A DNA stretch of 64,000 nt from Candidatus Beckwithbacteria bacterium GW2011_GWC1_49_16 (lineage in GTDB: Bacteria; Patescibacteriota; Microgenomatia; UBA1400; CG1-02-47-37): NCBI GenBank assembly GCA_001029675.1, contig CP011210.1:128193-192192 (forward strand), written 5' to 3'. The notes under the pieces are model-generated. The model saw nothing but the letters and a program-made list of their open reading frames with translations. It was not told where the DNA came from and made no database searches. This document shows, piece after piece, positions 1,837 through 52,313 of the stretch; the stretch's first letter is position 1, and every line of letters starts with the position of its first letter. Position numbers and translations under genes: made by a program.

Positions 1837-2580
1837 TTAGCCGGTTTGGGGTTTGACTTCCAGGAAGGGTTTTTGTGCTTCAGGAATGAGGTCGGGGTTA
1901 ACCGGAAAGTGGATGGTGGCGTAGGGGGGGCGGGGGATTTGGTTGCGGTTAAGGTTTGGAGCCAGCCGGCCTTTGATGGCCAGGCTTTCTCGGCCCTGAC
2001 CGCCGTCGTCGCAGCCGTAGCCGTGGATCCAGATAGACGGATGAAAGGAAAACATGGCCCGGCCGTGGGCAAGACCGGGAAGGTTGATCTTGCCGCCCGG
2101 GGTTTTTGAGGCCAGGGCGTAGACGTAAAACTTGGGGTAGGGCAGTTTAGTCTTTCGGGAGCGGTTTAAAGCGTCAAACTGGTTTTTGATGGTGCTGATG
2201 GCGCAGTTTAAGGTGTTTTGAGTGTCGACTACGGCCTCGGTGAAAACAACGGGCAGGACCCGGCCGGACTTTTTGATGATGAAATCCAGGTGGGGAGGGT
2301 AGAGGCAGGCAGGTTTACTCCGGCGGCGGTTTTGTTCGTCGTAGTAGCTGATGCGCATCGGGTTGACCCGGACCGGGCCGGCCAGGGCTAAAATGGCCCC
2401 TAGCTGGTTGCCGCCTTTGGCGATGGGAACGACGGAAACGCGGTTGTCGGGAAAGAGGTGCTTGAATTCGGCGGTTAAAGAGGCCAGAGCCTGGAGGCAA
2501 AGGCTGGAGGGGATCAAAGTAATGGCGGTGTCAAAAGAAGTGGCGGCAGCAATGGGGTTTTTGAGTTGGGCCATCGGCAT
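1837..2580 (-). CDS. phosphoribosyltransferase-like protein (HPRT-like fold, degenerate PRPP motif)
   Basis: VVPIAKGGNQLG, ISYYDE and VLPVVFTEAVVDTQNTL resemble the HPRT motifs VLKGG, SSY and VLIVEDIIDTGLTL. The acidic PRPP-binding residues are substituted. A C-terminal extension is present. Confidence 0.4.
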   Translation of the reverse strand: MPMAQLKNPIAAATSFDTAITLIPSSLCLQALASLTAEFKHLFPDNRVSVVPIAKGGNQLGAILALAGPVRVNPMRISYYDEQNRRRSKPACLYPPHLDFIIKKSGRVLPVVFTEAVVDTQNTLNCAISTIKNQFDALNRSRKTKLPYPKFYVYALASKTPGGKINLPGLAHGRAMFSFHPSIWIHGYGCDDGGQGRESLAIKGRLAPNLNRNQIPRPPYATIHFPVNPDLIPEAQKPFLEVKPQTG

Positions 2581-2649
2581 TATTGTAGCATTAAAACTGA
2601 CGCTTGTTTTTTACCGCAAAAGGTGCGAGAATTAGTGCGGAAAATCAAC

Positions 2650-3723
2650 ATGTATCAGCCAAAATTTACCATTAGCAACGAAATTTTAAAATATATCGGG
2701 GAGATTGGCGGAGCCAAAGAGGTAATTGATTATGCAGTGATGGTGCCGGCGTGGGAGGCGAAATTTAAAGAGGAGGCGATGGTGCGGACGGTCCATTTTG
2801 GCACCAAGATTGAAGGGAACGAACTGAATTTTTCTCAAACAGAGAGGGTAATGAAAGGTGAAGAGGTCATCGCCCGGGAAAGAGACATTCAGGAAGTTTT
2901 AAACTATAGAAACGTGATGGAATATATCGACCGATTGGGGGAGAGGTTCGGCGAGAAGGGGCCGGGCGGGTCAGCAGCCAGCTATTCCGAAGGCTGGCTC
3001 CAAAAAATCCACCAGTTGACCACCGAGAAGATTTTAGAGAAAGGTAGAGCCGGGGAGTATCGAACCAGTCGGGTGGTGGTAAAAAACAGCGCCACGGGCG
3101 AGGTGAGTTTCCGGCCGCCTTTGCCGGTGGAAGTCGAGGTGCAACTAGCCGAATTTTTTGAGTGGCTCAACAGCGACGAGGGGAAAAAGCTTCATCCGGT
3201 TTTGCGAGCCGGGATAACCCATTATGAGCTGGTGCGGATTCATCCCTTTGTGGACGGCAATGGCCGGGTGGCCAGAGCTTTTGCTCTTTTAGTTTTGTTT
3301 CGCGAAGGCTATGATGTGAAGCGGTTTTTCTCGATCGAGGAGTATTTTGACAAGAATGCCCCAGCGTATTACCAGGCGCTTCAGGCGGTGTCGCAGGCTC
3401 GCGGGGACTTGACCTTCTGGCTGGAGTTTTTTACCAAAGCTTTGGCGATTGAACTAACTAAAATTAAAGACAGGGTCAGGAGCTTGTCGATTGACTTTAA
3501 GTGGCGGGACAGGTTGGGCCGGCAGATTGCGCTTTCGGCGCGGCAGATTAAACTGATGGAAATGTTGACCGACAAAGACAAGCTTTTTATGAGGGAAGCC
3601 AGAGAGAAGTTTGCCGACGTGTCTGATGATACTATTTTGCGGGACATTAAAGATTTGATGGACAAGGGGATTTTGAAGAAGAAAGGCAGCACCAAGGCAG
3701 CGTATTACATGATGCGAAATTAA
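2650..3723 (+). CDS. Fic family protein with a C-terminal winged-HTH domain
   Basis: Fic motif HPFVDGNGRVARAF. The C-terminal helix-turn-helix region reads ILRDIKDLMDKGILKKKGSTKAAYY. The start was trimmed to Met29 (MYQPKF) to avoid overlap with the upstream gene on the opposite strand. Confidence 0.8.
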   Translation: MYQPKFTISNEILKYIGEIGGAKEVIDYAVMVPAWEAKFKEEAMVRTVHFGTKIEGNELNFSQTERVMKGEEVIARERDIQEVLNYRNVMEYIDRLGERFGEKGPGGSAASYSEGWLQKIHQLTTEKILEKGRAGEYRTSRVVVKNSATGEVSFRPPLPVEVEVQLAEFFEWLNSDEGKKLHPVLRAGITHYELVRIHPFVDGNGRVARAFALLVLFREGYDVKRFFSIEEYFDKNAPAYYQALQAVSQARGDLTFWLEFFTKALAIELTKIKDRVRSLSIDFKWRDRLGRQIALSARQIKLMEMLTDKDKLFMREAREKFADVSDDTILRDIKDLMDKGILKKKGSTKAAYYMMRN

Positions 3724-3726
3724 TTT

Positions 3727-5523
3727 ATGAAGTTCAAGCGCTTTGCCGAGTATTTAGAGAGAATTGAGCAAACGCCGTCGCGGCTTAAAATGACTTCAGT
3801 TTTGGCCGAGCTTTTTGGAGAGGCGACGGCTGACGAGATCGACCAAATGGTTTATTTGGCTTTGGGGAGATTACGGCCTAAGTACGAGAGTGTTGAGTTT
3901 AACCTGGCAGAAAAAATGATGTTTAGAGTGATGGCCGAGGCGTACCAGGTTGAGCCGGCAAAAGTAAAGCAAGCGTTCAAAAAGACTGGTGATTTAGGCG
4001 GGGCGGTGGAGGAGTTGCCCCACTTCGCCAAAGCTTCGAGGGGTACAGCTAAAGATTTATCGGTGGCAGAGGTGTACCAGCGGCTGATGGATGTAGCGGC
4101 GGACGAGGGGGTGGGTAGCCAGGAAAGAAAAGTTAACCATATGGCTAATTTGATCCGCGACCTTGACAGCCTGTCGGCAAAGTATGTGTTGCGGATTCCG
4201 GTAAAAAAGTTGAGGTTGGGGTTTTCGGACATGACGGTTTTGGATGGATTATCCTGGATGGAGGCAGGCGACAAGAGTTTGCGGCCTCAACTGGAGCGGG
4301 CTTTTAACGTGTCGGCCGATATCGGCGGCATTGCGGAGAGGTTTAAAAAAGGCGGTCTGGCCGGGGTGGCGGGGGTCAAGGTAAAGGTGGCGGTGCCGAT
4401 CAGAACGGCGCAGGCGGAAAGGCTGCCGAATGAGAAAGCGGTGGTGGAGAAACTCAAAGTGTTTGCGGTGGAGGGCAAATACGACGGTTTGAGGGTGCAA
4501 ATCCATGTCGATAAATCTCCAGACTCAAAGCGCAAGATTCAAAGTGATTTGTTCGGTGAGTCAAAAAAATTTGTGGAGATATTTTCTCGCAATCTGGACA
4601 ACATGACGCATATGTTCCCCGACATCGTGGCGGCGGCCGACAAACTAAAAGTTAAAACGGCGATTTTGGACGGGGAAGCGGTTGCGTTTGAGCCTAAAAC
4701 CGGCAAGTCTTTACCTTTTCAGGAAACGGTGACCAGAAAAAGAAAACACGGAGTCAAAAATAAGGCAAAAGAGATGCCGCTAAAGGTGATTATCTATGAT
4801 TTACTATATCTTAACGGTACAACATTGATCGAGAAACCGTTTAAGGAGAGAAGAAAGCAGCTGGAAAAAGTCTTGGGTAGGAATGGAAAAACCGACGGAC
4901 TGGAGCTGGCAGAGCAAGAAATTGTCAGCGAGCCGGAGAGGTTAAACCAGCTTTTAAAAAAATACCTTAAGGAAGGGTTAGAGGGAGTGATGTGTAAGAA
5001 GTTAACCACGGCTTATCAGGCCGGAGCCAGAAATTTTAACTGGGTGAAGCTGAAAAAAACTTCCCAAAAGGAATTGGCCGACACCATCGATTGCGTGGTG
5101 ATGGGCTATTATGCCGGCCGGGGCAAGAGGAGCGGGTTTGGTATCGGGGCGTTTTTGGTCGGTGTTACCCACAAATCCGAAGCACGAAGTACGAAATCCG
5201 AAATCGGGGTTGGGTCGGTGGCCAAAATTGGTACAGGCTTGACCGACGAGCAGTGGCGGGAGATCCGCCGGCGGGCGGACAAATTGAAAGTTAAGGCTAA
5301 ACCGGAGGAGTATGTGGTGGACAAGAATTTGGCGCCCGACGTTTGGGTGAGGCCAGAGATGGTGGTAGAGATTTTGGCGGATGAAATAACTCGCAGCCCG
5401 ATTCACGCTTTTGGCTTGGCTTTGCGTTTCCCGCGGCTTATTAGTTTTCGTGACGACAAGGATGTTGGCCAGGCGACGACAAAGCGCGAGCTTGAGCGGC
5501 TGTTTAAGCTGCAGCGGGGTTAG
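3727..5523 (+). CDS. lig: ATP-dependent DNA ligase (archaeal/eukaryotic type)
   Basis: Adenylation motif EGKYDGLRVQIH (KxDG). Length is 598 aa. The C-terminal OB-domain region reads VVEILADEITRSP. Confidence 0.9.
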   Translation: MKFKRFAEYLERIEQTPSRLKMTSVLAELFGEATADEIDQMVYLALGRLRPKYESVEFNLAEKMMFRVMAEAYQVEPAKVKQAFKKTGDLGGAVEELPHFAKASRGTAKDLSVAEVYQRLMDVAADEGVGSQERKVNHMANLIRDLDSLSAKYVLRIPVKKLRLGFSDMTVLDGLSWMEAGDKSLRPQLERAFNVSADIGGIAERFKKGGLAGVAGVKVKVAVPIRTAQAERLPNEKAVVEKLKVFAVEGKYDGLRVQIHVDKSPDSKRKIQSDLFGESKKFVEIFSRNLDNMTHMFPDIVAAADKLKVKTAILDGEAVAFEPKTGKSLPFQETVTRKRKHGVKNKAKEMPLKVIIYDLLYLNGTTLIEKPFKERRKQLEKVLGRNGKTDGLELAEQEIVSEPERLNQLLKKYLKEGLEGVMCKKLTTAYQAGARNFNWVKLKKTSQKELADTIDCVVMGYYAGRGKRSGFGIGAFLVGVTHKSEARSTKSEIGVGSVAKIGTGLTDEQWREIRRRADKLKVKAKPEEYVVDKNLAPDVWVRPEMVVEILADEITRSPIHAFGLALRFPRLISFRDDKDVGQATTKRELERLFKLQRG

Positions 5524-5557: not shown

Positions 5558-5791
5558 ATGGTTTCAGCTTTACCCAAATTTCTCCATAAATATTTTTGGG
5601 GCGATCGGTTAAGCGAGCTTAATTTGAAAGATCACCGGCGCTACATTATCCAGACAATTTTGGAAAAAGGTGATCGCCGGGCGGCCTCGTGGCTAATAAA
5701 AAAAGTTGGCAAAAAAACCCTGAAAAACAACTTGCCGGTTTTGTCTTTAAGCCCTAAAGCCTTTAATTTCTGGCGGCTGTACTTGTCATGA
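5558..5791 (+). CDS. small protein, possible partner (antitoxin-like) of the downstream nucleotidyltransferase
   Basis: A 77-aa ORF overlaps the downstream gene by 4 nt (ATGA), consistent with translational coupling. No motif was recognised. Confidence 0.35.
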   Translation: MVSALPKFLHKYFWGDRLSELNLKDHRRYIIQTILEKGDRRAASWLIKKVGKKTLKNNLPVLSLSPKAFNFWRLYLS

Positions 5792-6423
5792 GCCAGAAAT
5801 TCTTCATTGATTCCCTGCCGCCTTTTACAGTTAAACTTTTAGCCTTGTTTCAGAAAGATAAATCGTCTTTTTTACCAGATTTTTATCTAACCGGAGGGAC
5901 GGCGCTTTCGTTACTTTTAGGTCACCGGGAGTCGGAAGATTTAGACTGGTTTAGCCCTAAAAATTTTGACCCGGTCAAACTTCAGTCGCAACTTTTAAAG
6001 CTCGGCAACTTATCCCGGGTGGAGTTGGAAGAAAATACTCTAAACGCTTATTTAAATGAAGTCAAAGTTCAATTTTTGGGTTATCCGTATCCCTTGTTGG
6101 GATCGCTAGCGACTTGGGGGAATATTAAAATCAGCTCTTTGCTGGACATCGCCTGTACTAAGGTGTTAACGATCGGAGTGAGGGGGAGTAAGAAAGACTT
6201 TGTTGACCTGTATTTTTTGTTAAAACAATTTTCTTTGGAAGAGTTATTTACTGCTTTAGCCAAAAAATACCGCCGGGTCGATTACAACCAGCCGCATATT
6301 TTGAAGGCTTTAGTGTATTTTGTTAATGCCGACAGTCAACCAATGCCCCGGATGCATCAACAAATCGATTGGGCAAAAATCAAGAAAGAAATAATTGGAA
6401 AAGTGAAAGCGATAAAACTTTAA
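5788..6423 (+). CDS. AbiEii/DUF1814-like nucleotidyltransferase (type IV toxin-like)
   Basis: YLTGGTALSLLLGHRESEDLDWF matches the Gly-rich GGTAL NTP-binding loop plus the acidic DxD motif typical of AbiEii-family nucleotidyltransferases. Confidence 0.55.
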   Translation: MSQKFFIDSLPPFTVKLLALFQKDKSSFLPDFYLTGGTALSLLLGHRESEDLDWFSPKNFDPVKLQSQLLKLGNLSRVELEENTLNAYLNEVKVQFLGYPYPLLGSLATWGNIKISSLLDIACTKVLTIGVRGSKKDFVDLYFLLKQFSLEELFTALAKKYRRVDYNQPHILKALVYFVNADSQPMPRMHQQIDWAKIKKEIIGKVKAIKL

Positions 6424-6480
6424 ACAGGCGCGAGCTTGAGGGATTATTTAAGCTGCAGCGGGGAAGTTGATTGAAATTAG

Positions 6481-7080
6481 TTACTGTCGTTCAATGCTGG
6501 ATGTTGTGTGGCCATCGAGACGATCAATATATTTTCCTGGATCACTTTTCTCCATATAGTTTAACCCCCGGATAAGGGAACCTTCAATTTTTGGTTCTAG
6601 ATAGCGATGCCTTCTTATAAGCTGGGCTATTTGCATGGGGTTAAATTCTCCAGTCACATATAGTCCTGTAATAAGAAAGTTTATAGCTGTGGCGTTATCC
6701 ATATTCTCGAGCGGTTCAGCCTTTATAAGCTCAGGACAGAAGACTCGGAGGTTATTTTTAATTCCTAAATGATTTAATGTTTCTAAAACTAAAGCTTTTG
6801 GATCTTGAGCCCATTCTGATTTAGTGAAAAACGCAACCCCGTCGATATCTGAATGTGGAGTAGCTACTCCTAAGGCAAATGACCCTACGACAACAATGGA
6901 AAGTTTATGTTCTCCCAAGGCCTGTTGAAGAGATTGAGTTATGTTACTAAGCCGCGCCTCGCTTTGTTGGCTGATTGAGGCATAGCTAGGGTAAGATTTA
7001 AGTTGGGAAAGGATAGTGGCGCGTTGCTGTTCAAAGCTGGCGCGCCATAATCTTATACCTCGTGGTGAAAACATACTCAT
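6481..7080 (-). CDS. nucleotidyltransferase domain protein (pol-beta-like minimal NTase with a helical C-terminal domain)
   Basis: GSFALGVATPHSDIDGVAFF is a GS...DxD pol-beta NTase motif. The start was trimmed to MSMFSPRG at 7080 to remove the overlap with the cofE-like gene. Confidence 0.6.
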   Translation of the reverse strand: MSMFSPRGIRLWRASFEQQRATILSQLKSYPSYASISQQSEARLSNITQSLQQALGEHKLSIVVVGSFALGVATPHSDIDGVAFFTKSEWAQDPKALVLETLNHLGIKNNLRVFCPELIKAEPLENMDNATAINFLITGLYVTGEFNPMQIAQLIRRHRYLEPKIEGSLIRGLNYMEKSDPGKYIDRLDGHTTSSIERQ

Positions 7081-7150
7081 TGTGAGAATTAAATTAAAAC
7101 AACGGCGAGAATTATACCACATTATTATAGGTTTGTTTACTTGTATAGGA

Positions 7151-7905: not shown

Positions 7906-10452
7906 ATGATAGACGTGGGTTTGAGTCAAAAAGAAGCAGAAAAAAGGTTAAGCCAGTTTGGCTGGAACGAGATTGCCAGGAAAAAAAGAGTCAGCGATCT
8001 GCAGTTGTTGTTAGCTCAAGTTAAATCGCCCCTGATTTATGTGTTGTTGGCGGCGATGGGCATTACCGGGGTGGTTTTACATGATGTGGAAGACACCATC
8101 GTCATTGGCCTGGCAGTGGTGTTTAACACTTTTTTGGGCTTTATCCAGGAAAGAAAAGCCAATCGGTCGCTGGAGGCTTTGGCGGCGGTGTTGACCCTTC
8201 ACGCCAAAGTGAAGAGAGACGGTAAGTGGGTGGAAATTGAAGCCAGAAAAGTAGTGCCGGGAGACGTGTTGCGGCTGGAGTTGGGTTCCAGAGTGGCGGC
8301 AGACGGAGAGGTGACGACGGCGGACTCGTTGTCGATTAATGAGGCGGTGCTGACGGGTGAGTCGGCGGCGGTGACAAAAAACAAAAAAGACAAGGCGTTC
8401 ATGGGCACGACGGTGGCCGGAGGCATCGGCGAGATGGTGGTGACCAAGACGGGGGAGAAAACCGAGTTTGGCAAAATCGCCGAGAGCCTGCAAGAAACCA
8501 AAAGCGAAGCGACTCCGCTGCAGGCCCAAATCAACCGCTTCGCTAAAACCATGGCGGTGGCGGTGTTTATCGTTTCTTTAATGGTACTGGCGGTGGGACT
8601 TTTTGTCGGAGACAGTTTCAGAGAGATTTTTCCGACAGCGGTGGCTTTGGCGGTGGCGGCTATTCCCGAAGGCTTGGCGGTATCGCTGACGGTGATTTTG
8701 GCCATAGGCATGCAGCGGATTTTAAAGAAAAAAGCTTTGGTGCGGAAACTGGTGGCGGCAGAAACTCTGGGCGGGGTGACGGTAGTTTGCGCCGACAAAA
8801 CCGGCACTCTGACCGAAGGCAAAATGCGGGTGGTTGATGTTTTGGAGAGTATTAGTCCGGACAAGAAAAGGCGGGAGATGAAGCGGGCGATGATGCTGAA
8901 AGCGGTGGTTTTGTGCAATGACATGCGGGACCCTTTGGAAGTAGCCATGATGGATTGGGCCCTTAAACAGCAATCTCACCTCCGAGGTGAAAATACCCAC
9001 GCCTCGGAGGTGTCTGGGTTTTTAGAGAAACAGTATCCGCGGCTGGACGAGATACCGTTTGACCCGAAACACCGTTATATTGCCACCTTACATAAAGTGA
9101 TCACTCCCGGAGTGTCTAGAGTAAAACACTCCGGGAGTGGAGAAACTCAAAGGTTGTTGCTGGTCGGTGGGGCGCCGGAAGAGGTCTTGGCGCGATGCGA
9201 CACCACCGAAGCCAGAAGAAAAGAGTGGCTGGAGAAAATCAACCGCGAAGGCAGACAGGGCCACCGCTTGGTAGGTTTTGCTTACCGGGAAGTAGGGGCG
9301 GATAAAAAAAACTTGGCCGATAAAGACATTAAGCAGCTGATGTGGTTGGGCAGTTTGGTGTTTGAAGATCCGATAAGAAAAGGAGTAAAGGAGTCGTTAA
9401 AAGAAGTAGCCGCGGCCGGAATTAAGGTTAAGGTAGTCACCGGCGATTACGCGCCGACGGCCGAAGCGGTGATGAAGGCTTTGGGGCTAATCGGAAGTAA
9501 AGAAGAGGGGGTAGTCATGGAAGGGAGCGAGTTAAAAAAACTGACGGATGAGGCGCTGAAGAAAAGGCTGTCGCAGGTGAAGTTGTTTGCCAGGACCACA
9601 CCGGATCAGAAGTTGAAAATCGTGGAGGTGTTACAGGGGATGGGCGAGGTGGTGGCGATGACCGGCGATGGGGTCAACGACGCGCCGGCTTTGAAAAAAG
9701 CCGATATCGGCATAGTGGTGGAGACGGCCTCGGATGTGTCCAAAGAAACGGCTGATATGGTGTTGCTCGACAGCAACTTTAAAACCATTTTGGCGGCGAT
9801 TGAGGGCGGACGGATGATTAAAGACAACTTGCGTAAAGTGATTTTGTATTTACTCGCCGATAGTTTTGGGGAGATTGTTTTGGTGGTGATGAGCCTAGTT
9901 GCTGGCATGCCTTTGCCGATAACGGCGGCGATGATTTTGTGGGTTAACTTGGTGTCGGACGGGTTTCCGGATTTGGCCTTAACAGTGGATCCGGCCGAGA
10001 AAGGTTTGTTAAAAAGGCAGCCGGAAAGCCGGCAGAGGCATTTAATTGACGCCGAGATGGCCTTGCTGATTGTTTTGATCTCGTTGGCTTCGGCGCTGAC
10101 GGCCTTTGGGGCATTTTGGTATTACTGGCATAATCCGGCTTATGGTTTGGAGCACGCCAGAACGGTGGCTTTTAACCTTTTGGGGCTAAACTCATTGTTT
10201 TACGTCTGGTCGGCCAGAAGCCTAAAGCAGCCGGTGTGGAAAGAAAGTTTATTTGAAAACCCATGGCTGGTGGTGGCGGTGCTTTTGGGGCTGGGGCTGC
10301 AGATGGTCGGAGTTTATTCCCGGGTAGGGCAAAGGTTGTTGGAGACGGTGGCGCTTGACGCTTCCGAGTGGTTGGTGGTGGTTGCCGGGAGTCTGCTGAT
10401 GATGGTAATAGTAGAAGGAGTTAAGTTCGCCTTTAACAGGCGAGAGAGGTAG
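7906..10452 (+). CDS. P-type cation-transporting ATPase (Ca2+/P2-type)
   Basis: Phosphorylation motif CADKTGTLT and hinge motif TGDGVNDAPALKKADIGI. There are 8-10 TM segments. It carries two in-frame palindromic insertions (see findings). Confidence 0.9.
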   Translation: MIDVGLSQKEAEKRLSQFGWNEIARKKRVSDLQLLLAQVKSPLIYVLLAAMGITGVVLHDVEDTIVIGLAVVFNTFLGFIQERKANRSLEALAAVLTLHAKVKRDGKWVEIEARKVVPGDVLRLELGSRVAADGEVTTADSLSINEAVLTGESAAVTKNKKDKAFMGTTVAGGIGEMVVTKTGEKTEFGKIAESLQETKSEATPLQAQINRFAKTMAVAVFIVSLMVLAVGLFVGDSFREIFPTAVALAVAAIPEGLAVSLTVILAIGMQRILKKKALVRKLVAAETLGGVTVVCADKTGTLTEGKMRVVDVLESISPDKKRREMKRAMMLKAVVLCNDMRDPLEVAMMDWALKQQSHLRGENTHASEVSGFLEKQYPRLDEIPFDPKHRYIATLHKVITPGVSRVKHSGSGETQRLLLVGGAPEEVLARCDTTEARRKEWLEKINREGRQGHRLVGFAYREVGADKKNLADKDIKQLMWLGSLVFEDPIRKGVKESLKEVAAAGIKVKVVTGDYAPTAEAVMKALGLIGSKEEGVVMEGSELKKLTDEALKKRLSQVKLFARTTPDQKLKIVEVLQGMGEVVAMTGDGVNDAPALKKADIGIVVETASDVSKETADMVLLDSNFKTILAAIEGGRMIKDNLRKVILYLLADSFGEIVLVVMSLVAGMPLPITAAMILWVNLVSDGFPDLALTVDPAEKGLLKRQPESRQRHLIDAEMALLIVLISLASALTAFGAFWYYWHNPAYGLEHARTVAFNLLGLNSLFYVWSARSLKQPVWKESLFENPWLVVAVLLGLGLQMVGVYSRVGQRLLETVALDASEWLVVVAGSLLMMVIVEGVKFAFNRRER
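8977..9012. repeat. palindromic element, variant B (CACCTCCGAGGTG / CCTCGGAGGTG) inside the P-type ATPase CDS
   Basis: Inverted 13-nt arms are separated by a 10-nt A-rich spacer. The element is translated in frame as HLRGENTHASEV. Confidence 0.7.
9102..9139. repeat. palindromic element, variant A (CACTCCCGGAGTG / CACTCCGGGAGTG) inside the P-type ATPase CDS
   Basis: Perfect reverse-complementary 13-nt arms with a 12-nt spacer. Translated in frame as TPGVSRVKHSGS. Confidence 0.75.
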
Positions 10453-17732: not shown

Positions 17733-18059
17733 ATGCCAGCAGGGCATTTTACCGATCAAGACTTTGAGGACAAAGTCTTAAAGCAAAAAGGAGTGTTTTT
17801 CGTCGACTTTTACGCCGACTGGTGCGGGCCGTGTAAAATCTCCGGCCCGATCATCGACAAGCTGGCTGATGAGTACCAAGGCAAGCTGACTTTCGGCAAG
17901 GTCAATGTCGATGAGAACCAGGCCACCAGCCAAAAGTACGGGGTGATGAGCATCCCGACGGTGGTGGTTTTAAAAGACGGCCAAGAAGTCGATAGGATGA
18001 TCGGCTTTGCCGGCGAGGAAGGCTATGTCAAGATGATTAAGAAGGCGCTGGGGGAATGA
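17733..18059 (+). CDS. trxA: thioredoxin
   Basis: WCGPCK active site. Length is 108 aa. Confidence 0.9.
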   Translation: MPAGHFTDQDFEDKVLKQKGVFFVDFYADWCGPCKISGPIIDKLADEYQGKLTFGKVNVDENQATSQKYGVMSIPTVVVLKDGQEVDRMIGFAGEEGYVKMIKKALGE

Positions 18060-19027
18060 ACGAAGTGCGTAAAGTGATCATCATCGGGTCGGGGCCGGCG
18101 GGGTATGCCGCGGCGCTTTACAACGCCAGGGCAGCCCTGGTACCGTTGGTTTTGGCCGGGGGAAAATGGGGCGGGCAGTTGATGCTGACGACTAAGGTGG
18201 AAAACTGGCCGGGGAGTAACGAGGGTATCATGGGGCCGGATTTGATGGAAAAGATGCGCCAACAGGCTAAAAAGTTTGGCGCCGAGATCGTGGACAAGAA
18301 TGTGACGGCGGTGGATTTTTCGAAAAGGCCGTTTGAGATTCACCTCGGAGGAGTTCCGCCGGCCGGCGGACCACCGTCCGAGGTGTATTTGGCCGAGGCG
18401 GTGATCGTGGCTACCGGGGCAGAGGCCAAGATGCTTGAAGTTGGCGAGGAGAAGTTTTTGGGCCGGGGAGTGTCGACCTGCGCCGTCTGCGACGCGCCGT
18501 TTTACAAGGACAAAATCACTTTCGTGGTGGGCGGGGGCGACGCGGCCATGGAAGAGGCTCTGGCCTTGGTCAAGCACGCCAGGGAGGTGATTATAGTTCA
18601 CAGAAGAGACCAGTTTCGGGCTTCGCAAATCATGCAAGATCGGGTGTTAAAAGACCACGCAGACAAGATTAAAGTCATCTGGGACAGCCAGGTTGCCGGA
18701 GTGGCGGGGGAAGAGAATTTAACCAAGATTGTGGTGGAGAATGTTAAAACTCAAGCCAAACAAGAGTTAGCGGTTGACGGTTTGTTTATAGCCATTGGCC
18801 ATAAACCTAATACCCAAATTTTCAAAGGCCAGCTGGAACTTGATAAAAAGGGGTATTTGGTAACCCGTTGGGGTGATTTAGGAAACTTTCCCACCCAAAC
18901 CAGCGTCACAGGCGTTTTTGGCGCGGGGGACGTGGTGGATTTTAGGTATCGCCAGGCAGTGACCGCGGCCGGTTTTGGAGTCATGGCCGCTCTGGACGCG
19001 GAGCGCTGGCTGGAACAGCAAGGATGA
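18056..19027 (+). CDS. trxB: thioredoxin reductase
   Basis: FAD motif IIIGSGPAGYAAA, redox CAVCDA, NADPH motif GGGDAAMEEA. Confidence 0.9.
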   Translation: MNEVRKVIIIGSGPAGYAAALYNARAALVPLVLAGGKWGGQLMLTTKVENWPGSNEGIMGPDLMEKMRQQAKKFGAEIVDKNVTAVDFSKRPFEIHLGGVPPAGGPPSEVYLAEAVIVATGAEAKMLEVGEEKFLGRGVSTCAVCDAPFYKDKITFVVGGGDAAMEEALALVKHAREVIIVHRRDQFRASQIMQDRVLKDHADKIKVIWDSQVAGVAGEENLTKIVVENVKTQAKQELAVDGLFIAIGHKPNTQIFKGQLELDKKGYLVTRWGDLGNFPTQTSVTGVFGAGDVVDFRYRQAVTAAGFGVMAALDAERWLEQQG

Positions 19028-27373: not shown

Positions 27374-28844
<1,471 letters not shown>

Positions 28845-29091: not shown

Positions 29092-29970
29092 ATGGGTTCT
29101 CAACCTGGTTTACACGAGGTTCCGGCAAGCGAAGAGCTTTCTAAATATGAGAAAAGTGATGTTGTTGCCAAGGTAATTGACTGTATTGATCGTAAACTGG
29201 ATGAGGGACAGACTTCCACTATTTTGCTAACTGGCGGTCCGGGAGTGGGTAAATCAACGGCTTCTTATGAAGTGCTTGATTACTTAAAACTAGAAAGAGG
29301 CTTAGAGTCAGTGTGGATACAAGCTCCCGACATCGGCAGTGAAAAGACAAGAGATAGAATAATCCATATGGGCAACGACAAAGTCTTATTTATAGATTCA
29401 GTTGATAATTTATTTCCTTCTTCTAAAGACCCCGATGAGGTGGCTGAAACAGTGAAGCTATTAAAAGATTTAGCCCAAAAAGGAGAGGGTCCAATAGTTA
29501 TAGCTAACATCCATGATCCCTATTTAGTTAAAAGAGAGATTAAAACAACCCATCTTCCTTTAAGAGACCAAATACTAGGTGATACAGGCTTGTTTTCTGA
29601 TACAAAACAACATTTTGTCGTTGAAGATCGGTTTGTTAATGAAAAAGCCATGAGCGTGGCGGTAAAAAGACTGATAGGTCAGGCTGATATTCACGCGAGT
29701 TGGGCTACCTTTATTCAGCTTGAACTTGAAAAACACGAAGTTAATAAACATAGCGAAACAACCTTTGCATTGTCTTTACTAAAGAAAGATTCTATGCCAG
29801 GGAGTTTGAAGAAATCTTATGTTTTAGGCAGTGAAGATGAGGTCAGGACTTGGTTTAACGATGCTATTGAAGATGCTAGAAAGGTGGGAGAAGAATTTTA
29901 TCGGGCTTATTATGAGCCAGACAGCGAAAGTGAGGCTTTCAAGGGACTAGTGCGATTTGATGTAAGCTAG
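29092..29970 (+). CDS. P-loop NTPase (AAA-like) encoded inside the 16S-23S spacer
   Basis: Walker A LLTGGPGVGKST and Walker B KVLFIDSVD. The gene is AT-rich. It is flanked by a duplicated tRNA-Ile 3' end. Confidence 0.55.
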   Translation: MGSQPGLHEVPASEELSKYEKSDVVAKVIDCIDRKLDEGQTSTILLTGGPGVGKSTASYEVLDYLKLERGLESVWIQAPDIGSEKTRDRIIHMGNDKVLFIDSVDNLFPSSKDPDEVAETVKLLKDLAQKGEGPIVIANIHDPYLVKREIKTTHLPLRDQILGDTGLFSDTKQHFVVEDRFVNEKAMSVAVKRLIGQADIHASWATFIQLELEKHEVNKHSETTFALSLLKKDSMPGSLKKSYVLGSEDEVRTWFNDAIEDARKVGEEFYRAYYEPDSESEAFKGLVRFDVS

Positions 29971-30416: not shown

Positions 30417-30929
30417 GTGAAGAGAATACCGATCTTTATAGCCAAATATTTTGGTCTATTTGAATTAAAGCAGTCGGTGGATGCCTTGGATGTATTAGCC
30501 GAAGAAGGACGTGCCAGGCCACGATAGGCGTCGGGGAGCTGCCAAGAAGCTGTGATCCGGCGGTGTCCGAATGGGAAAACCTCCTCATTAGTAATAGTGG
30601 GGGCCCCGACAGCGCAAGCTTGTCGGGGGGGGAACCCGGGGAACTGAAATATCTAAGTACCCGGAGGAAAAGAAATTAAATAAGATGCCGTCAGTAGCGA
30701 CGAGCGAAAGCGGTCTAGTCCAAACTCCGACATTACGTCGGAGGGTTGTAGGGCTCCAATATGGGACTACGAGAGATAGTCGAACAACTCGGAATAGTTG
30801 GCCAAAGAAAGTGAAAGCCTTGTAGATGAAATTTTGAGTAGCTCTAGGAGATTCCTGAGTACCACGAGAGACGGCAAACTCTTGTGGGAAGCCGGGGCGA
30901 CCACGCTCCAAGACTAAATACTAATACAT

Positions 30930-30970
<41 letters not shown>

Positions 30971-32456
30971 GGGTCGATGACCCAGTGAAATAGTACCTGA
31001 AACCGATTGCTAACAAACAGTGGGAGGGCCGACGTAAGTCGAGCCTGACCGCGTGCCTATTGAAGAATGAGCCGGCGAGTCTTTGCTGGTGGCAAGGTTA
31101 AGTCGCTTGAAGCGACGGAGCCATAGTGAAAGCGAGCCTGAATAGGGCGATTAGTTGCCAGCAGAGGACCCGAAGCCGAGCGATCTATTCATGAGCAGGG
31201 TGAACCTCGAGTGATATCGGGGGGAAGCCCGAACCTGTGTATGTTGCAAAATGCTAGGATGACTTGTGAATAGAGGTAATATGCCAAACGAGCTCGGAGA
31301 TAGCTGGTTCTCCCCGAAATATATTTAGGTATAGCCTTTCCTTATTTAGGCGCAGGGGTAAAGCACTGGATGGGCATTAGGGACTTGTCTCTGATGCTCA
31401 ACCAAACTCTGAATACTGCGTTGATAACGGAAGGAGTCAGTTGCTGGGGGCTAAGCTCCAGCCGCAAAAGGGAAACAACCCAGATCTCCAGCTAAGGTCT
31501 CTAAATCACTTGCTTAGTTTGTAAGGAGGTCGTAGTCCTTAGACAGCCAGGAAGTCGGCTTAGAAGCAGCCATCTTTGAAAGAAAGCGTAACAGCTCACT
31601 GGTTGACGGAAGACGGCGCCGAAAATTTATCGAGGATAAAGCAGTGTACCGAAGCTGAGACCCCGACAGCGCAAGCTTGTCGGGGGGTAGGGGAGCGTTC
31701 TAAGGGCAGTGAAGGGCCGATGTAAATCGCGCCTGGAGCGCTTAGAAGTGAGAATGCCGGCATGAGTAGCGGAACTCCGGTGAGAATCCGGAGGGTCGAA
31801 AGTCCGAGGTTTCCTACGCAACGTTCGTCGGCGTAGGGTTAGTCGGGCCTAAGGCAAGCCCCGTGTAGTGCGGGGGTAGTCGATGGACAACAGGTTAATA
31901 TTCCTGTACCGGTGACCAATCGTTATTCCCGACGCAAGTCGGGATAAACAGCTGGGGTGGGACGGAATTTGAGAAGTCGAGCGTCTTATTGATTTGACGT
32001 CTAAAAGGCGAGTCAGTCCCGATGTGAAAATCAGTCGGGACGACGGCGAGTCTTGATGGAGAGTTCTCCTTTGGGAGAGCAATTCGACCGGCTTAAGTTT
32101 CCGAGAAAAGCATCGCAGCGAGAAGGGTCACCGCCCGTACCGCAAACCGACACAGGTGGACAAGTCGAGTAGACTAAGATCAGCGGAAGAACGGTGGTTA
32201 AGGAACTCGGCAAATTAGCTGGGAGTAATTTTGAGAGATTCCCTGTCCGACGTTACGTCGGACCGCAGCGAAAGAGTGCCAAGCGACTGTTTAACAAAAA
32301 CACAGGTCTATGCAAAGGCGCAAGCCTAGGTATATGGGCTGAAACCTGCCCAATGCCGGAAGGTTAATTGAGAGGGTGACGTCCGACTTCGGTCGTGACC
32401 GAGCCTTCGATCGAAGCCCCGGTGAATGGCGGCTTTAACTATAAGAGTCCAAAGGT

Positions 32457-33119
32457 AGAATCGCTGCCTTTGTAAAATTTTGCTATATGCTGGAAACTCC
32501 GAGAATCTTGAACTACTGCCTGTTTATGTGTAATACTACACATAATGGGAAGTAAAAAAGTTACAAGTGCGGACAATCAGCAGGAAAGGCTAAAAACGAT
32601 TGGTTGGATAGTTGGTTTCACAGATGGTGATGGTTGTTTTTGTATTTCGATAAACAAAAACCACAGATTAAAACTTGGTTGGCAAGTGGTTCCTGAGTTT
32701 GTAATAACTCAAGGAGAGAAAAGCCTAGAGAGCTTAAAACTTGTTAAAAAGTTTTTTAAATGTGGAAGAATCTTTATTAATCGAAGACATGACAACCATA
32801 AGGAAGACCTTCATAGATATTGCGTGAGAAGTATAGCTGACTTAGAAGAAAAGATAATTCCTTTCTTTGAGAAAAATCAGTTAAAAACCTACAAAAGAAA
32901 ATCATTTGAGACTTGGAGTAAAGCAGTGAAGTTGATGATAAACAAAAGACTTCATTTAAGTATGAAAGGGATTAGAAAGTTAGCAGAAATGTCAGCGGAG
33001 ATAAACCAACAGAAACGACCAAAGTTTTTAGAATCCTCAGAGACTATACGCAGAAGTCCCGCTAAGCGGGATAAGATATAGTCCGATCTCATAAGCGATT
33101 ATGAGTTAACATTATTAAG
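32457..33119 (+). mobile_element. group I intron in 23S rRNA (helix 69/71 region, E. coli ~1931 site)
   Basis: Exon 1 ends ...AGTCCAAAGGT and exon 2 resumes AGCGAAGTACCTTGTCGGGTAAGTTCCGAC. The insert ends in G. It contains a LAGLIDADG ORF. Confidence 0.65.
32545..33081 (+). CDS. LAGLIDADG homing endonuclease, intron-encoded
   Basis: LAGLIDADG motif GFTDGDGCF. 178 aa, AT-rich, located inside the 23S intron. Confidence 0.85.
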   Translation: MGSKKVTSADNQQERLKTIGWIVGFTDGDGCFCISINKNHRLKLGWQVVPEFVITQGEKSLESLKLVKKFFKCGRIFINRRHDNHKEDLHRYCVRSIADLEEKIIPFFEKNQLKTYKRKSFETWSKAVKLMINKRLHLSMKGIRKLAEMSAEINQQKRPKFLESSETIRRSPAKRDKI

Positions 33120-33236
33120 AGCGAAGTACCTTGTCGGGTAAGTTCCGACGCGCACGAAAGGTGTAACGACTTGGCAACTGTCTTGACCACTGATCCGGTG
33201 AAATTGAAATGGCTGTGAAGATGCGGCCTATTGACT

Positions 33237-33267
<31 letters not shown>

Positions 33268-33908
33268 ATAACTTGACATTGGTTTATTTAAGTTGATCGT
33301 CTAGGATAGGCGGGACCCCGACTTTATGTCGGGGGCCAGTGTAATACCGCTCGTTAACTTGAGTAAATCTAACTTATGATCTCTGGAAACGGGATTAGGG
33401 ACAGTGTCTGGGAGGTAGTTTCGCTGGGGAGGTGGTTTGCTAAAAAGTACCGCAAACGCGCAAAGGTACCCTTAGCGCGGATAGAAATCGCGCTGAAAGT
33501 GTAAAGGCAAAAGGGTGCTTGACTGTGACACTTACAAGTGAAGCAGGAGCGAAAGCTGGCCTTAGTGATCCTCGAATCCGTTGTGGAACGGATCGGGCTT
33601 ATCGGATAAAAGCTACCCCGGGGATAACAGAGTAGTCGCACCCAAGCGTCCACAGCGACGGTGCGGTTCGCTACCTCGATGTCGGCTCAGGGTATCCTGG
33701 GGGTGTAGAAGCTCCCAAGGGTTGGTCTGTTCGCCCATTAAAACCCTACGTGAGCTGGGTTCAGAACGTCGCAAGACAGTTCGGTCTCTATCCGCAGTCA
33801 ACGTTGGATTCTTGAGGGAAGCTGACCTCAGTACGAGAGGACCAGGTTGGGCCAGTCCCTAGTGTGCCGGTTGTCGCATCAGCGGCACTGCCGGGTAGCT
33901 ACACTGGT

Positions 33909-33946
<38 letters not shown>

Positions 33947-34109
33947 TCCCAAGATGAGGAATCCCATTAAGATCCCTGGGAGACTACCAGGTGATAGGCA
34001 GCCGGTGTAAGTGCCGTAAGGCATTTAGCCTAGCTGTACTAATCGATCGATCGAAAATAGACCAATTTATTTTGGCTATAAAGAACGAGTATTCTCTTTA
34101 AAATAACTT

Positions 34110-37942: not shown

Positions 37943-39307
37943 ATGGCGAGGCAAGTGAGCCGGTTTGTGTGTCAAAACTGCGGGGGGGAGTTTCCCAAGT
38001 GGAGCGGTCAGTGCGCTAGTTGCGGCCAGTGGAACAGTTTAGTAGAAACCCTGGTTGTCCCCAAGAAAAAGACAGGTTTTGGCGGGAGGCGAGCCTTCGG
38101 GAGAGAGCCGGTAAGGTTGAGTCAGATAAAGGGTAAAGGGGTGATGAGATTGGGAAGCGGCATTGGTGAACTTGACCGGGTTTTGGGCGGAGGTATTGTG
38201 CCCGGAAGCGTGGTTTTACTAGCCGGCGAGCCGGGAATAGGCAAATCTACTTTATTAACTCAACTTGCTTTAAGAATCACCTCCGAGGTGAAAAAATCCT
38301 CCACCTCGGAGGTGTTGTATGTCTGCGGGGAAGAAAGTCCGGAGCAGATAAAGCTTAGAATTGATCGGTTAAATACCACACCGGGACAGTCTAAAGCCAG
38401 TCCCGGTGTGACGCAACTTTCATTTTTGCCGGAAACCGACGTTGATGAAGTGATCGTCACCATCGAAGGGCAAAAACCGGCGCCTGGGCTGGTTATTGTG
38501 GATTCGGTTCAAAGTCTGTCTACCACCGACTTGACCGGTATGGCCGGCAGCGTGGGGCAAGTGAGAGAATGTTCATATAGATTACTCAATATGGCTAAAA
38601 AGACTAATATACCTGTATTTCTGGTAGGGCATGTTACCAAGGAAGGGGCCATTGCCGGGCCCAAAGTTTTGGAACATTTGGTGGATTCGGTGTTGTATTT
38701 AGAGGGGGATAAAAAACACGTCTTTCGCATTTTGCGGGCCCAAAAGAATCGTTTTGGGTCGGTCGATGAAGTCGGGGTGTTTTTGATGGAAGAGGCGGGC
38801 TTAAAAGAGGTGGAAAACCCGTCTGACGTGTTTTTGGAAGAGCGCCAGGCAGGGGTGCCGGGGAGCTGTTTGGTGGCTACCATGGAAGGTACCAGGCCGG
38901 TTTTGGTCGAGGTTCAGGGCTTGGTCAACCCGACGCAACTGGCGGTGCCAAGACGCGTGGCAACAGGGGTGGATCAGAGGAGGTTGACGCTTCTGACGGC
39001 GGTGTTGTCCAAGCGCTGTGGTTTGCCTTTAGGCAACATGGACGTTTATGTCAATGTGGCCGGGGGGCTTAATTTACGCGAGCCGGCGGTTGATTTGGGC
39101 GTCTGTTTGGCAATAGCCTCGTCGTTCAAAAACAAGGTTCTACCCAAGAAAGCGGCCGTTTTTGGAGAGGTGGGGCTTTTGGGGGAGATAAGACAGGTAA
39201 GTTTTGCGGCCAAACGCGCCCATGAGGCCAAGAAACTAGGTTACAGTTTGATTATTGAACCGGGTAAGGTGAAAACTATCAGGGATGCTTTAAAGATTTT
39301 AGGTTAA
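37943..39307 (+). CDS. radA: DNA repair protein RadA (Sms)
   Basis: Zn finger CQNCGGEFPKWSGQCASCGQWNS, Walker A GEPGIGKSTLL, KNRFG motif, Lon-protease-like C-terminus. It contains an in-frame palindromic insertion. Confidence 0.9.
   Translation: MARQVSRFVCQNCGGEFPKWSGQCASCGQWNSLVETLVVPKKKTGFGGRRAFGREPVRLSQIKGKGVMRLGSGIGELDRVLGGGIVPGSVVLLAGEPGIGKSTLLTQLALRITSEVKKSSTSEVLYVCGEESPEQIKLRIDRLNTTPGQSKASPGVTQLSFLPETDVDEVIVTIEGQKPAPGLVIVDSVQSLSTTDLTGMAGSVGQVRECSYRLLNMAKKTNIPVFLVGHVTKEGAIAGPKVLEHLVDSVLYLEGDKKHVFRILRAQKNRFGSVDEVGVFLMEEAGLKEVENPSDVFLEERQAGVPGSCLVATMEGTRPVLVEVQGLVNPTQLAVPRRVATGVDQRRLTLLTAVLSKRCGLPLGNMDVYVNVAGGLNLREPAVDLGVCLAIASSFKNKVLPKKAAVFGEVGLLGEIRQVSFAAKRAHEAKKLGYSLIIEPGKVKTIRDALKILG
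38278..38314. repeat. palindromic element, variant B, inside the radA CDS
   Basis: CACCTCCGAGGTG-aaaaaatcctc-CACCTCGGAGGTG, translated as TSEVKKSSTSEV. Confidence 0.75.
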
Positions 39308-42925: not shown

Positions 42926-45042
<2,117 letters not shown>

Positions 45043-49022: not shown

Positions 49023-49045
49023 ACTATTTAGTATATAGTAAATTA

Positions 49046-51956: not shown

Positions 51957-52313
51957 ATGCGTCAGCATAATGTCGCCCGCGGTAAACAAGGTGAAAATTT
52001 GGCGGTGAAGTTTTTACAAGAGAAGGGCTATCGGATTTTGGAAAGAAACTTTCGGACCCGGTTTGGCGAGGTCGATATTGTGGCTAAAGATGGTCAGGCG
52101 TTGGTGTTTGTGGAGGTTAAGACTAAAAGCAGCGATAGTTTTGGTGAGCCCTGGGAGATGGTGGATGAGCGCAAGCTGGAGCAGGTCAAGAAGATGGCCC
52201 AAGTTTATCTACAATCTAAAAACTACAATCAACAATCTATGCGCTTGCGCATCGACGTAGTCGGGGTGTGGCTTGATTCGGGTAAACTTAAGCACTGGCA
52301 GGCGGTTTATTGA
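51957..52313 (+). CDS. yraN: YraN-family (UPF0102) endonuclease
   Basis: GENLAVKFLQEKGYRILERNFRTRFGEVDIVAKDGQALVFVEVKTK. Confidence 0.8.
   Translation: MRQHNVARGKQGENLAVKFLQEKGYRILERNFRTRFGEVDIVAKDGQALVFVEVKTKSSDSFGEPWEMVDERKLEQVKKMAQVYLQSKNYNQQSMRLRIDVVGVWLDSGKLKHWQAVY

Follow-up and report, generated by a model that had tools for sequence, protein, structure and literature searches.

Repetitive extragenic palindromes (REP) have been described together with REP-associated tyrosine transposases (RAYT), in the so-called REPtron arrangement in which the RAYT gene is flanked by the repeat (PMC3733652, Di Nocera et al. 2013; PMC3116915, Bertels & Rainey 2011), and copies of REPs inside genes, among them DNA-repair genes and those of tRNA synthetases and TruB, have been reported (PMC3733652). 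Rickettsia palindromic elements (RPE), as far as the work of Ogata et al. 2000 is summarised in PMC3733652 and PMC10969869, are about 100-150 bp long, bear a CGTC tag and are confined to Rickettsia. Miniature inverted-repeat transposable elements (MITE; Correia, Nezha, QMITE and others) are 70-300 bp long, derive from insertion sequences of the DDE type and show target-site duplications (PMC10969869). In this work we focused on a 64,000-nucleotide stretch of Candidatus Beckwithbacteria bacterium GW2011_GWC1_49_16 (contig CP011210.1, positions 128,193 to 192,192), called the window or W below, and on a palindromic element of about 37 bp that occurs in it repeatedly inside housekeeping genes.

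Two other kinds of short repeat have to be considered for comparison. DNA uptake sequences and uptake signal sequences (DUS/USS) are short oriented motifs that occur roughly once per kb and arise mostly by substitution. Small dispersed repeats (SDR) of 21-27 nt were reportedly described by Elhai et al. in 2008 from Nostoc and other cyanobacteria; to our knowledge, no SDR has been reported to consist of 13-nt inverted arms in pairs around conserved loops.

We conclude that the element is very probably a dispersed palindromic repeat that behaves as a unit at the DNA level and is tolerated in protein loops. The family has spread through many Microgenomates and Berkelbacteria genomes, which belong to ultra-small groundwater bacteria. 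Across genomes the same 37-mer is found in unrelated genes and between genes, in both orientations and in all three reading frames, and differences in one arm are compensated in the other. These observations bear out a first-pass annotation of the window, which had proposed an RPE-like DNA element rather than a peptide motif. Literature searches returned no paper with the arm sequences, and none describing palindromic repeats or RAYT/REPIN in the Candidate Phyla Radiation (CPR). For some genomes of this group the literature reports that mobile-element genes are lacking (Ch65, PMC7143001).

Methods

Loci from other genomes are numbered from L001 and homologous proteins are given P numbers (P0187, for example). 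The covariance model R1 was built from 26 copies of the element taken from many genomes; these copies had been selected for at least 11 of 13 paired positions. The general hairpin pattern of the family was written as CACYYCNNRRGTG-N(8-22)-CACYYNNGRRGTG. For the survey of other genomes, one genome per GTDB species was scanned for A-type elements. Flanking sequences were compared for 40 copies.

Results and discussion

Architecture of the element in the window

The element consists of a 13-nt arm, a spacer of 10-12 nt and the reverse complement of the arm, giving 36-38 nt in total and typically 37 bp with an 11-nt loop. Two arm types, A (CACTCCCGGAGTG / CACTCCGGGAGTG) and B (CACCTCCGAGGTG / CACCTCGGAGGTG), are present where they had first been noticed. 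Allowing one mismatch, arm A has 14 strand-matches in the window against 0.02 expected from shuffles and arm B has 10 against 0.06, so that chance does not account for the family. We count five strong copies and three to four degenerate ones, all belonging to a single element family (Table 1); the figure of seven given by the first-pass annotation does not agree with its own list, which names six. Its description of the arms as exactly complementary applies to four of the strong copies, the first copy in the P-type ATPase having one mismatch. The R1 model recovers all five strong copies at 35-58 bits and adds weaker relatives in dprA, radA and a TrxB-like gene, the last of which is a weak and uncertain member. 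At least six strong copies lie in 81 kb of the window genome (the window and 17 kb of flanks), where the arm variants A, B and E coexist. The dprA copy had been taken for a hybrid of A and B arms, and hence for a sign of recombination. A solo A arm with a distinct C-like hairpin beside it is the better reading, and the 97%-identical strain L033 has the same arrangement; as evidence for recombination between copies the site is poor.

The A, B and E arms are each a 6+1+6 self-palindrome, and they stand as an inverted pair around 10-12 nt, which is the architecture of a REPIN (REP doublet forming a hairpin: two inverted units and a short spacer). The D and F arms of other genomes are not self-palindromic, yet their partner arms still pair, and the conserved feature is thus the 13-bp stem between the arms. 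Folded as RNA, a check suggested at the outset, the hairpins reach -25 to -28 kcal/mol (z = -4 to -6), and as single-stranded DNA (ssDNA) about -15 kcal/mol; a single arm alone folds at only about -2 kcal/mol. With its 37 nt and 13-bp stem the element is, like a REP, a repeated palindrome of 20-40 bp with a stable stem-loop. Rfam searches of the window at gathering thresholds matched rRNA and tRNA only, and no known RNA family corresponds to the element. The left half of the B arm, CACCTCC, equals the anti-Shine-Dalgarno sequence at the 3' end of the 16S rRNA (window 28836-28842), and the right arm holds its complement GGAGGTG.

Host genes and reading frames

Pfam confirmed the hosts as a P-type ATPase, RadA, Obg, DprA and ComM, with domains on both sides of the inserts. 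Every window copy lies within one uninterrupted open reading frame (ORF), so that the in-frame read-through that had been proposed, which is also a feature of RPE, is predicted at the ORF level for all of them. The expected junction-spanning peptides include ...LRQRHTPGVKDVHTPGVESSEVIR and LALRITSEVKK. The window copies use phases 0 and 2 only (HSRS/HLRG and TPGV/TSEV), the third phase giving a ...GAG TGA stop if the spacer starts with A; translation in all three frames, initially claimed for the window, is a property of the family across genomes.

Recurrent TPGVK(E/D)VHTPGV-like peptides in several proteins could suggest a peptide repeat selected at the protein level. The same DNA is, however, read as TPGV, HSRS or LPEC according to the host, in both orientations and also outside genes, and strict complementarity of the arms is irrelevant to a peptide; we give this explanation practically no credence.

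Conservation of stems and spacers among genomes

The survey found 32 stretches in about 12 metagenome-assembled genomes (MAGs), assigned to Curtiss-, Beckwith-, Woese- and Berkelbacteria, to unnamed Microgenomates and to several MAGs that are probably mislabelled. The nearest named homologues of the window's ComM, RadA and Obg are from Beckwithbacteria, and proteins identical to those of the window are encoded on assembly GCA_001001885.1 (contig LCOF01000002.1), an example of an element-rich genome. IMG/VR contained no phage contig matching A or B elements.

At least seven arm variants occur across genomes, all with complementary partner arms (Table 1). In the alignment of the 26 copies, double-sided changes affect 6 of the 13 stem pairs (29 cells) and one-sided changes of the G-U type are absent, and shifted-register controls collapse. 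The percentage of paired positions is uninformative here since the copies had been preselected for pairing, but the pattern of double changes remains informative. Its exclusively Watson-Crick nature fits a constraint at the DNA level.

Three spacer families (AAAGAAGTTCA, AAGGGYNCCCA and AAATCTKCARA) recur with different arm variants, which points to common ancestry of the whole 37-mer. One Beckwithbacteria MAG carries six copies with the same spacer AAAGAAGTTCA (L002, L013, L022, L026 twice and L032), which indicates recent copying. MAGs with identical copies are JBDRQW01 (Beckwithbacteria), JBAQEX01 and CAYGFS01.

The survey also met longer multi-copy palindromes with the same 13-nt core, CACTCCSGGAGTG, in unrelated phyla, namely in Makaraimicrobium (L006, L017, L023 and L031) and in Acidobacteriota (L008 and L028), for example GGTTCCACTCCCGGAGTGG-TATCATC-CCACTCCGGGAGTGGAACC; they may be of common origin or convergent.

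Placement relative to genes

That none of the window copies is intergenic is true and had been given weight, but the window is about 88-90% coding, and the chance that all eight copies would be genic is 0.9^8, or about 0.43; the observation therefore carries no weight. In the unbiased sample L001-L032, classified by eye, about 16 copies are clearly intragenic, and about 15 either lie between genes or at their edges or are ambiguous. By this count the family is not confined to coding sequence, roughly half of the copies in other genomes being intergenic or at gene edges, and the expected enrichment of the arms in coding DNA was not found. With only about 10% of non-coding DNA, genic copies are if anything depleted, as random insertion followed by purifying selection predicts. 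REPs are predominantly extragenic; the present element lies in ORFs throughout the window and is roughly half intragenic elsewhere.

Further hosts are LepA, LeuRS, TruB, TsaD, DnaE, RarA, ComEC, YraN, MurC-like ligases (at the same site in two genomes), the gamma subunit of ATP synthase, a glycosyltransferase and giant surface proteins. In the window, a 2547-aa ORF on the minus strand (52307-59950) has no Pfam match, and a related giant protein in L010 holds an A-type element. This ORF is preceded by small ORFs, one of which (60333-60872) has the SAM-like N-terminal domain of tyrosine recombinases.

The presence of DprA, ComM, RadA, ComEC, RarA and DnaE among the hosts, and of pilin-like proteins and competence genes in the window, would agree with DUS/USS-like motifs accumulating by biased uptake and recombination in naturally competent CPR bacteria, the more so as Neisseria is known for DUS in inverted pairs and for their enrichment in repair genes. 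We nevertheless consider this very improbable. DUS/USS occur roughly once per kb but the element only about once in 10 kb, single arms almost never occur, the spacer belongs to the conserved unit, and several variants exist within one genome; moreover, the copies are insertions that lengthen loops and not substitutions, and they keep an arm complementarity that an uptake receptor does not require.

With respect to the local GC skew, spacers have the same orientation in 18 cases and the opposite one in 20, showing no bias with respect to the replication strand. In the window itself the skew is positive in every 4-kb bin (+0.05 to +0.32) and nearly all genes are on the plus strand; such strand disparity is a published trait of the order UBA1400 (PMC7143001). 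An apparent clustering of copies near contig ends was an artefact of the 8-kb sequence blocks, L032, for instance, comprising the terminal 972 nt of a contig of 32,972 nt.

Presence, absence and decay in orthologous loops

The copies had been said to sit where orthologues have variable loops, and alignments bore this out: orthologues with and without the element, or with decayed copies, were found at the same loops. Such differences were seen at the ComM site, at two sites each in RadA and Obg, and in the DprA linker. The alignments did not yield the clean insertion boundaries that had been hoped for.

In ComM, many orthologues at 70-75% identity hold the element or its decayed remains in the same loop, and others have a short loop without it. 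W, L039, L122 and L123 have a common downstream insertion boundary, at which the arms are of variant A in W, C in L039 and L122, and CAATCC in L123, and the L039 loop stands in the orientation opposite to that of L122. A boundary common to several lineages indicates that the ComM copy is old; it has since been overwritten, flipped or co-evolved. Locus L033 (Ga0209417_1032223) matches window positions 48920-51032 at 97% identity; from about 140 nt short of the ComM copy onwards its sequence is unrelated and AT-rich. It was rejected as an empty-site allele, and represents a recombinant strain or a chimeric assembly.

At the first RadA site W has ITSEVKKSSTSEV against about 5 aa in most relatives, and P0187 carries an A variant, FTPGVKDVHTPGV, at exactly the same site. 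In the second RadA loop, where P0190 and relatives hold a B copy, the hairpin of W is degenerate. Both insert sites lie in coil in an AlphaFold model of RadA, with a predicted local distance difference test (pLDDT) of 62-70 versus 84-93 in the adjoining blocks. The Obg insert of W is 13 aa long and lies in a beta-hairpin where the closest relatives read M-SFKG-KNLV, and P0276 and P0302 hold copies at another Obg loop. In DprA, the linker before the winged-helix domain contains copies in W, L011, L047 and L123.

Unrelated palindrome families are translated in the same RadA and Obg loops of other lineages, giving EGSDPS (from GAGGGGTCCGACCCCTC), NKDAPSLRKGTSF and RSGLKGVPSRTDL. The recurrent use of these sites therefore largely reflects permissive loops. 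TQGYEP (from CAAGGTTACGAACCTTG) is a further peptide of this kind. The RadA, Obg and ComM homologues with such peptides include P0134, P0141, P0150, P0164, P0249 and P0250.

Some details of these sites recall a local origin without a transposase, by template switching or duplication at native arm-like sites (TCN-TCG-GAG-GTG, read as SSEV or TSEV), followed by gene conversion that would homogenise the copies. At the first RadA site the protein gains exactly 8 aa net, corresponding to the 24 nt of one arm and the spacer, and native ...EV codons are overlapped by the right arm; in ComM of L041, L042 and L049 the right arm coincides with native TSEV codons, and a short way downstream W and L039 retain an SSEV that resembles an arm. 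The lack of target-site duplications reported below and the purely Watson-Crick stem changes, as template-switch correction predicts, point the same way. Identical 11-nt spacers in unrelated genes and different genomes, however, cannot come from local flanks; intergenic copies occur without arm-like neighbours, and the family spans distant CPR lineages. We regard such an origin as quite unlikely. A fixed net insertion of 24 nt was also discarded as a rule, since it fits the first RadA site and not ComM or Obg (+3 to +13 aa).

Insertion flanks and RAYT-like genes

Among the 40 copies whose flanks were compared, the target-site duplication that had been suggested for checking was found no more often than by chance (2/40 for 2 nt and none for 4 nt), and the flanks showed no inverted-repeat extension and no conserved target or tetranucleotide; the only trend was that position -1 is never G and +1 mostly T. 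The lack of a duplication, of a palindrome extension and of a conserved flank argues against a MITE of the DDE type.

Genes for RAYT-like Y1 (HUH) transposases are frequent in Beckwithbacteria-like genomes, and tblastn detected about 14 of them in the fetched loci (Table 1). The proteins L113a, L113b and L002 score above the Pfam threshold for Y1_Tnp; the others have a precomputed Y1_Tnp annotation, marked weak for the truncated L116 gene. The best NCBIfam match is the REP-associated tyrosine transposase model, below its equivalog cut-off. In three sister genomes (L113/L114, L116 and L123), from contigs fetched around homologues that carry the element, a Y1_Tnp gene adjoins Obg, in contigs syntenic with the window (Rho, M23 peptidase, [Y1], Obg); the Y1 position is empty in the window (44029-44032).

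Every resolvable RAYT-like gene has a small palindrome of its own on either side, forming a REPtron-like unit. The palindrome of L061 has the design of the element studied here, that is a 13-bp stem and self-palindromic arms differing only in the central C or G. The RAYT-flanking palindrome families are also translated inside proteins, and EGSDPS is found inside a RAYT gene (L113 Y1a). A Pfam scan of about 55 window ORFs revealed no transposase and turned up only the ORF with the tyrosine-recombinase N-terminal domain and a LAGLIDADG intron protein.

Table 1. Copies of the palindromic element in the window, arm variants and intergenic copies in other genomes, and RAYT-like genes with their flanking palindromes (scores refer to model R1)
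Feature	Source	Position	Strand	Arms, spacer or palindrome	Host or context	Peptide	Score and folding
Copy 1	W	8977-9012	+	B arms, one right-arm mismatch (CGCCTCGGAGGTG), 10-nt spacer AAAATACCCA	P-type ATPase, N-domain	HLRGENTHASEV (aa 358-369)	35.5 bits, E = 1.4e-7; RNA -26.4 kcal/mol, z = -4.8
Copy 2	W	9102-9139	+	Perfect A arms, 12-nt spacer TCTAGAGTAAAA	Same P-type ATPase	TPGVSRVKHSGSG (aa 399-412)	39.9 bits, E = 8e-9; RNA -28.2 kcal/mol
Possible degenerate relative	W	18341-18385	+	Outer arms CACCTCGGAGG...CCGAGGTG around nested GC palindrome	Thioredoxin-reductase-like (TrxB-like) ORF (18056-19027)		15.9 bits, E = 0.04; -33 kcal/mol
Copy 3	W	38278-38314	+	Perfect B arms, spacer AAAAAATCCTC	RadA, directly after Walker A helix	TSEVKKSSTSEV (aa 112-124), predicted coil, pLDDT about 70	50.5 bits
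Degenerate E-like hairpin	W	38377-38410	+	CACACCGGGAC-(12 nt)-GTCCCGGTGTG	RadA, second variable loop	TTPGQSKASPGV	20.5 bits, E = 2e-3; RNA -21.8 kcal/mol
Copy 4	W	44635-44671	+	Perfect A arms, spacer AGGGAATTTTA	Obg, G-domain beta-hairpin	aa 203-215	52.9 bits
Solo A arm	W	49721-49733	+		DprA, linker from DprA domain to winged-helix domain		13.8 bits, self-folding only
C-like hairpin	W	49744-49777	+	CACCTCCAAGGTG-(8 nt)-CTCCTTAGAGGTG, 11/13 positions paired	DprA linker; identical in strain L033		22.9 bits, E = 5e-4
Copy 5	W	51174-51210	+	Perfect A arms, spacer AAAGATGTTCA	ComM, between AAA+ domain and C-terminal domain	HTPGVKDVHTPGV (aa 411-423)	58.3 bits
Variant C arm				CACCTCTAAGGTG
Variant D arms				CACCCCCGAGGTG / CACCTCGGGGGTG
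Variant E arm				CACACCCGGTGTG
Variant F arms				CACTCCCGAGGTG / CACCTCGGGAGTG
ComM-site variant				CAATCC...GGATTG, compensated pair	ComM
Intergenic copy	L013				Between tuf and rpsJ
Terminator-like copies	L005, L016				With T-runs
Intergenic copy					Upstream of ruvC
Intergenic copy					Between dnaE and dinB
RAYT-like genes	L113	9270-9923; 17077-17766		GGAAGGATCCGACCCTTCC / GGAAGGGTCGGATCCTTCC (L113a); GACAAGGTTCGACCTTGTC (L113b)
RAYT-like gene	L123	5108-5755		GTAAGGTACGGTACCTTAC
RAYT-like gene	L116	11453-11910
RAYT-like gene	L002	1851-2537		CAAGGTTACGAACCTTG
RAYT-like gene	L036			CAAGGTTACGAACCTTG
RAYT-like genes (two)	L053			12-16-nt stems
RAYT-like gene	L061			AGGGTCCGACCC-TCTTGA-GGGTCGGACCCT
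RAYT-like gene	L072			12-16-nt stems

Comparison with described repeats

The element resembles REP/REPIN in being a GC-rich multi-copy palindrome of 20-40 bp, in forming a doublet of inverted units that folds into one long hairpin, in the lack of target-site duplications, in the coexistence of several families in one genome, in its intragenic copies in comparable hosts (DnaE, LeuRS and TruB among others) and in the RAYT-like genes of sister genomes that are bracketed by small palindromes. It differs in that it has no GTAG/CGTC tag, that its units are only 13 nt long and that the window copies are all intragenic and in reading frame; furthermore, the RAYT genes found carry palindromes other than those of the studied family, and the host lineage belongs to the CPR.

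With RPE, the relatives first proposed, the element has in common that housekeeping genes of a reduced genome contain palindromic repeats in frame, that these add surface segments and that no transposase is known to accompany them. At 37 bp it is three to four times shorter, lacks CGTC, adds an apparent net 3-13 aa in comparable loops and has no sequence similarity to RPE. The RPE-like character thus stands, but the nearest relatives in mechanism are REP/REPIN with RAYT. Like MITEs the element is non-autonomous, has inverted-repeat ends and is sometimes read through in frame; with its 37 bp and no duplication it does not qualify as one. SDRs are said to be likewise very small hairpin-forming repeats with signs of mobility, present also within genes; they belong to another lineage and have another sequence, and the element studied here is made of paired 13-nt inverted arms with conserved loops. 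DUS/USS are similar as short conserved motifs with inverted pairs and enrichment in genome-maintenance genes, but the element is about ten times less dense, consists of obligate pairs with a conserved spacer, lengthens genes and keeps complementarity, and does not belong with them.

Two features of REPs fail (the GTAG/CGTC tag and the extragenic location), the link to RAYT is made by analogy and the element is far shorter than RPE; the family therefore stands apart from REP and RPE proper, though the phenomenon of repeats translated in frame is known.

A probable REP/REPIN-like hairpin repeat in protein loops

Taken together, we think it reasonably probable that the family is a selfish hairpin repeat of the REP/REPIN kind, translated where protein loops tolerate it; that a RAYT-like Y1 transposase mobilises the 37-bp element is, by analogy, about an even call. 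The element would be a miniature, non-autonomous, hairpin-forming DNA repeat of the functional class of REP/REPIN and RPE, copied as ssDNA by a RAYT-type Y1 (HUH) tyrosine transposase acting in trans, and the window genome seems to hold older, diverging copies. Since these genomes are about 90% coding, insertions would persist mainly if a stop-free frame and a net length that is a multiple of three fall in a surface loop or an inter-domain linker, and would then simply be translated as hydrophilic filler, such as TPGVKDVHTPGV. The perfect pairing of the arms could be kept by the propagation mechanism or by recognition of the ssDNA hairpin, or alternatively by overwriting from the dominant variant of the genome or by template-switch ('quasipalindrome') correction. 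Template-switch correction of quasipalindromes is an established process. Selection on host mRNA or protein would not be needed for this upkeep.

Several results weigh against this interpretation. The GTAG/CGTC end tag that defines REPs (PMC3733652) is lacking in the 40 copies, whose arms begin with CAC and end with GTG. No Y1 gene flanked by CACYYC...GTG arms was present in about 1.2 Mb of fetched DNA, which makes the link to RAYT one of analogy; all of the about 14 RAYT-like genes, which come from fetched loci only, are flanked by other palindrome families, and tblastn with RAYT-like proteins found no Y1 gene in the window and its 17 kb flanks (81 kb). Insertion on the lagging-strand template might be expected to leave some orientation bias relative to GC skew, and there is none. 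The net gain in length differs from site to site (+3 to +13 aa), and clean insertion boundaries are not definable. Finally, perfect ComM hairpins stand at one orthologous boundary in lineages that are about 27% diverged in protein, which could mean selection for function.

This last point leads to the possibility that the hairpins are functional cis-elements under selection in the mRNA or DNA of their hosts, serving as translation pauses at domain boundaries, in mRNA stability or processing, or as binding sites of dimeric proteins. The stems at the ComM boundary of W, L039, L122 and L123 are perfect despite different arms, one change being compensated in place; spacer families are conserved, the RNA hairpins are very stable, copies are often at inter-domain linkers (DprA and ComM), the B arm shares CACCTCC with the 16S 3' end, and host genes lean towards DNA uptake and recombination. 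On the other hand, many orthologues lack the element or have decayed copies at the same site, gene position, frame and orientation vary freely, intergenic copies exist, and several arm variants (A, B and E) are found within the window genome. The absence of G-U intermediates points to DNA rather than RNA, and unrelated palindrome families in the same loops fit permissive sites better than a specific function. We hold a cis-acting role to be unlikely, and retain the selfish REP/REPIN-like repeat as our interpretation.

A bolder form of it, which we put forward as speculation that is unlikely to be correct, is that coding sequence is the main long-term habitat of REPIN-like replicators in ultra-small CPR genomes with almost no intergenic space, that several palindrome families compete there for the same permissive loops, and that resident hairpins are actively kept perfect, as the compensated arms at the one orthologous ComM boundary of diverged lineages would indicate, and are concentrated in DNA-uptake and recombination genes (DprA, ComM, RadA, ComEC, RarA and DnaE). 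If true, this would imply a function or a feedback on the recombination machinery of the host, with mRNA-level control by hairpins mimicking Shine-Dalgarno and anti-Shine-Dalgarno sequences, or modulation of competence proteins, as candidate functions.

If the REP/REPIN-like nature of the family is confirmed, the biology of REP/REPIN-RAYT and of RPE-type 'selfish DNA in proteins' extends to the CPR. Unusual loop insertions in CPR housekeeping proteins may then in part be translated repeats, which affects alignments, phylogenies and structure prediction, and the family offers a natural experiment that shows where proteins accept loop insertions of 8-13 aa. Its tendency towards recombination and competence genes resembles a pattern, so far unexplained, that has been reported for intragenic REPs of other phyla. 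Strongly palindromic 37-mers in genes could also cause sequencing or assembly errors.

Other features of the window

A second, low-quality MAG of the same population, L118 (GCA_003445575.1), is identical to the window across both ATPase copies; many of its genes are split (ATPase, DNA ligase and IMPDH), by frameshifts elsewhere that look like assembly errors. At 60880-60918 the window contains an intergenic perfect 15-nt inverted repeat, GCCTGCGTAGGCAGC-(9 nt)-GCTGCCTACGCAGGC, which does not belong to the family; it includes GTAG/CTAC and may represent a different type of REP.

The 23S rRNA gene (30454-34064) measures 3611 nt against 2925 nt for the model and holds an ORF for a LAGLIDADG homing endonuclease (32545-33081); an intron is therefore probable. 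Between the two tRNAs of the 16S-23S spacer there is an ORF for a 292-aa AAA-ATPase (29092-29970). In the related Beckwithbacteria-like contigs L042 (11056-11781), L049 and L050 (near 6282-7119) the 16S rRNA gene contains about 0.7-0.8 kb of inserted sequence at the site that corresponds to window 28114. The window also encodes an ATP-dependent DNA ligase (3727-5523), of a type typical of archaea and eukaryotes, two Fic/DOC-domain proteins (2566-3723 and 5788-6423) and an AbiEii toxin-like protein (63359-63925).

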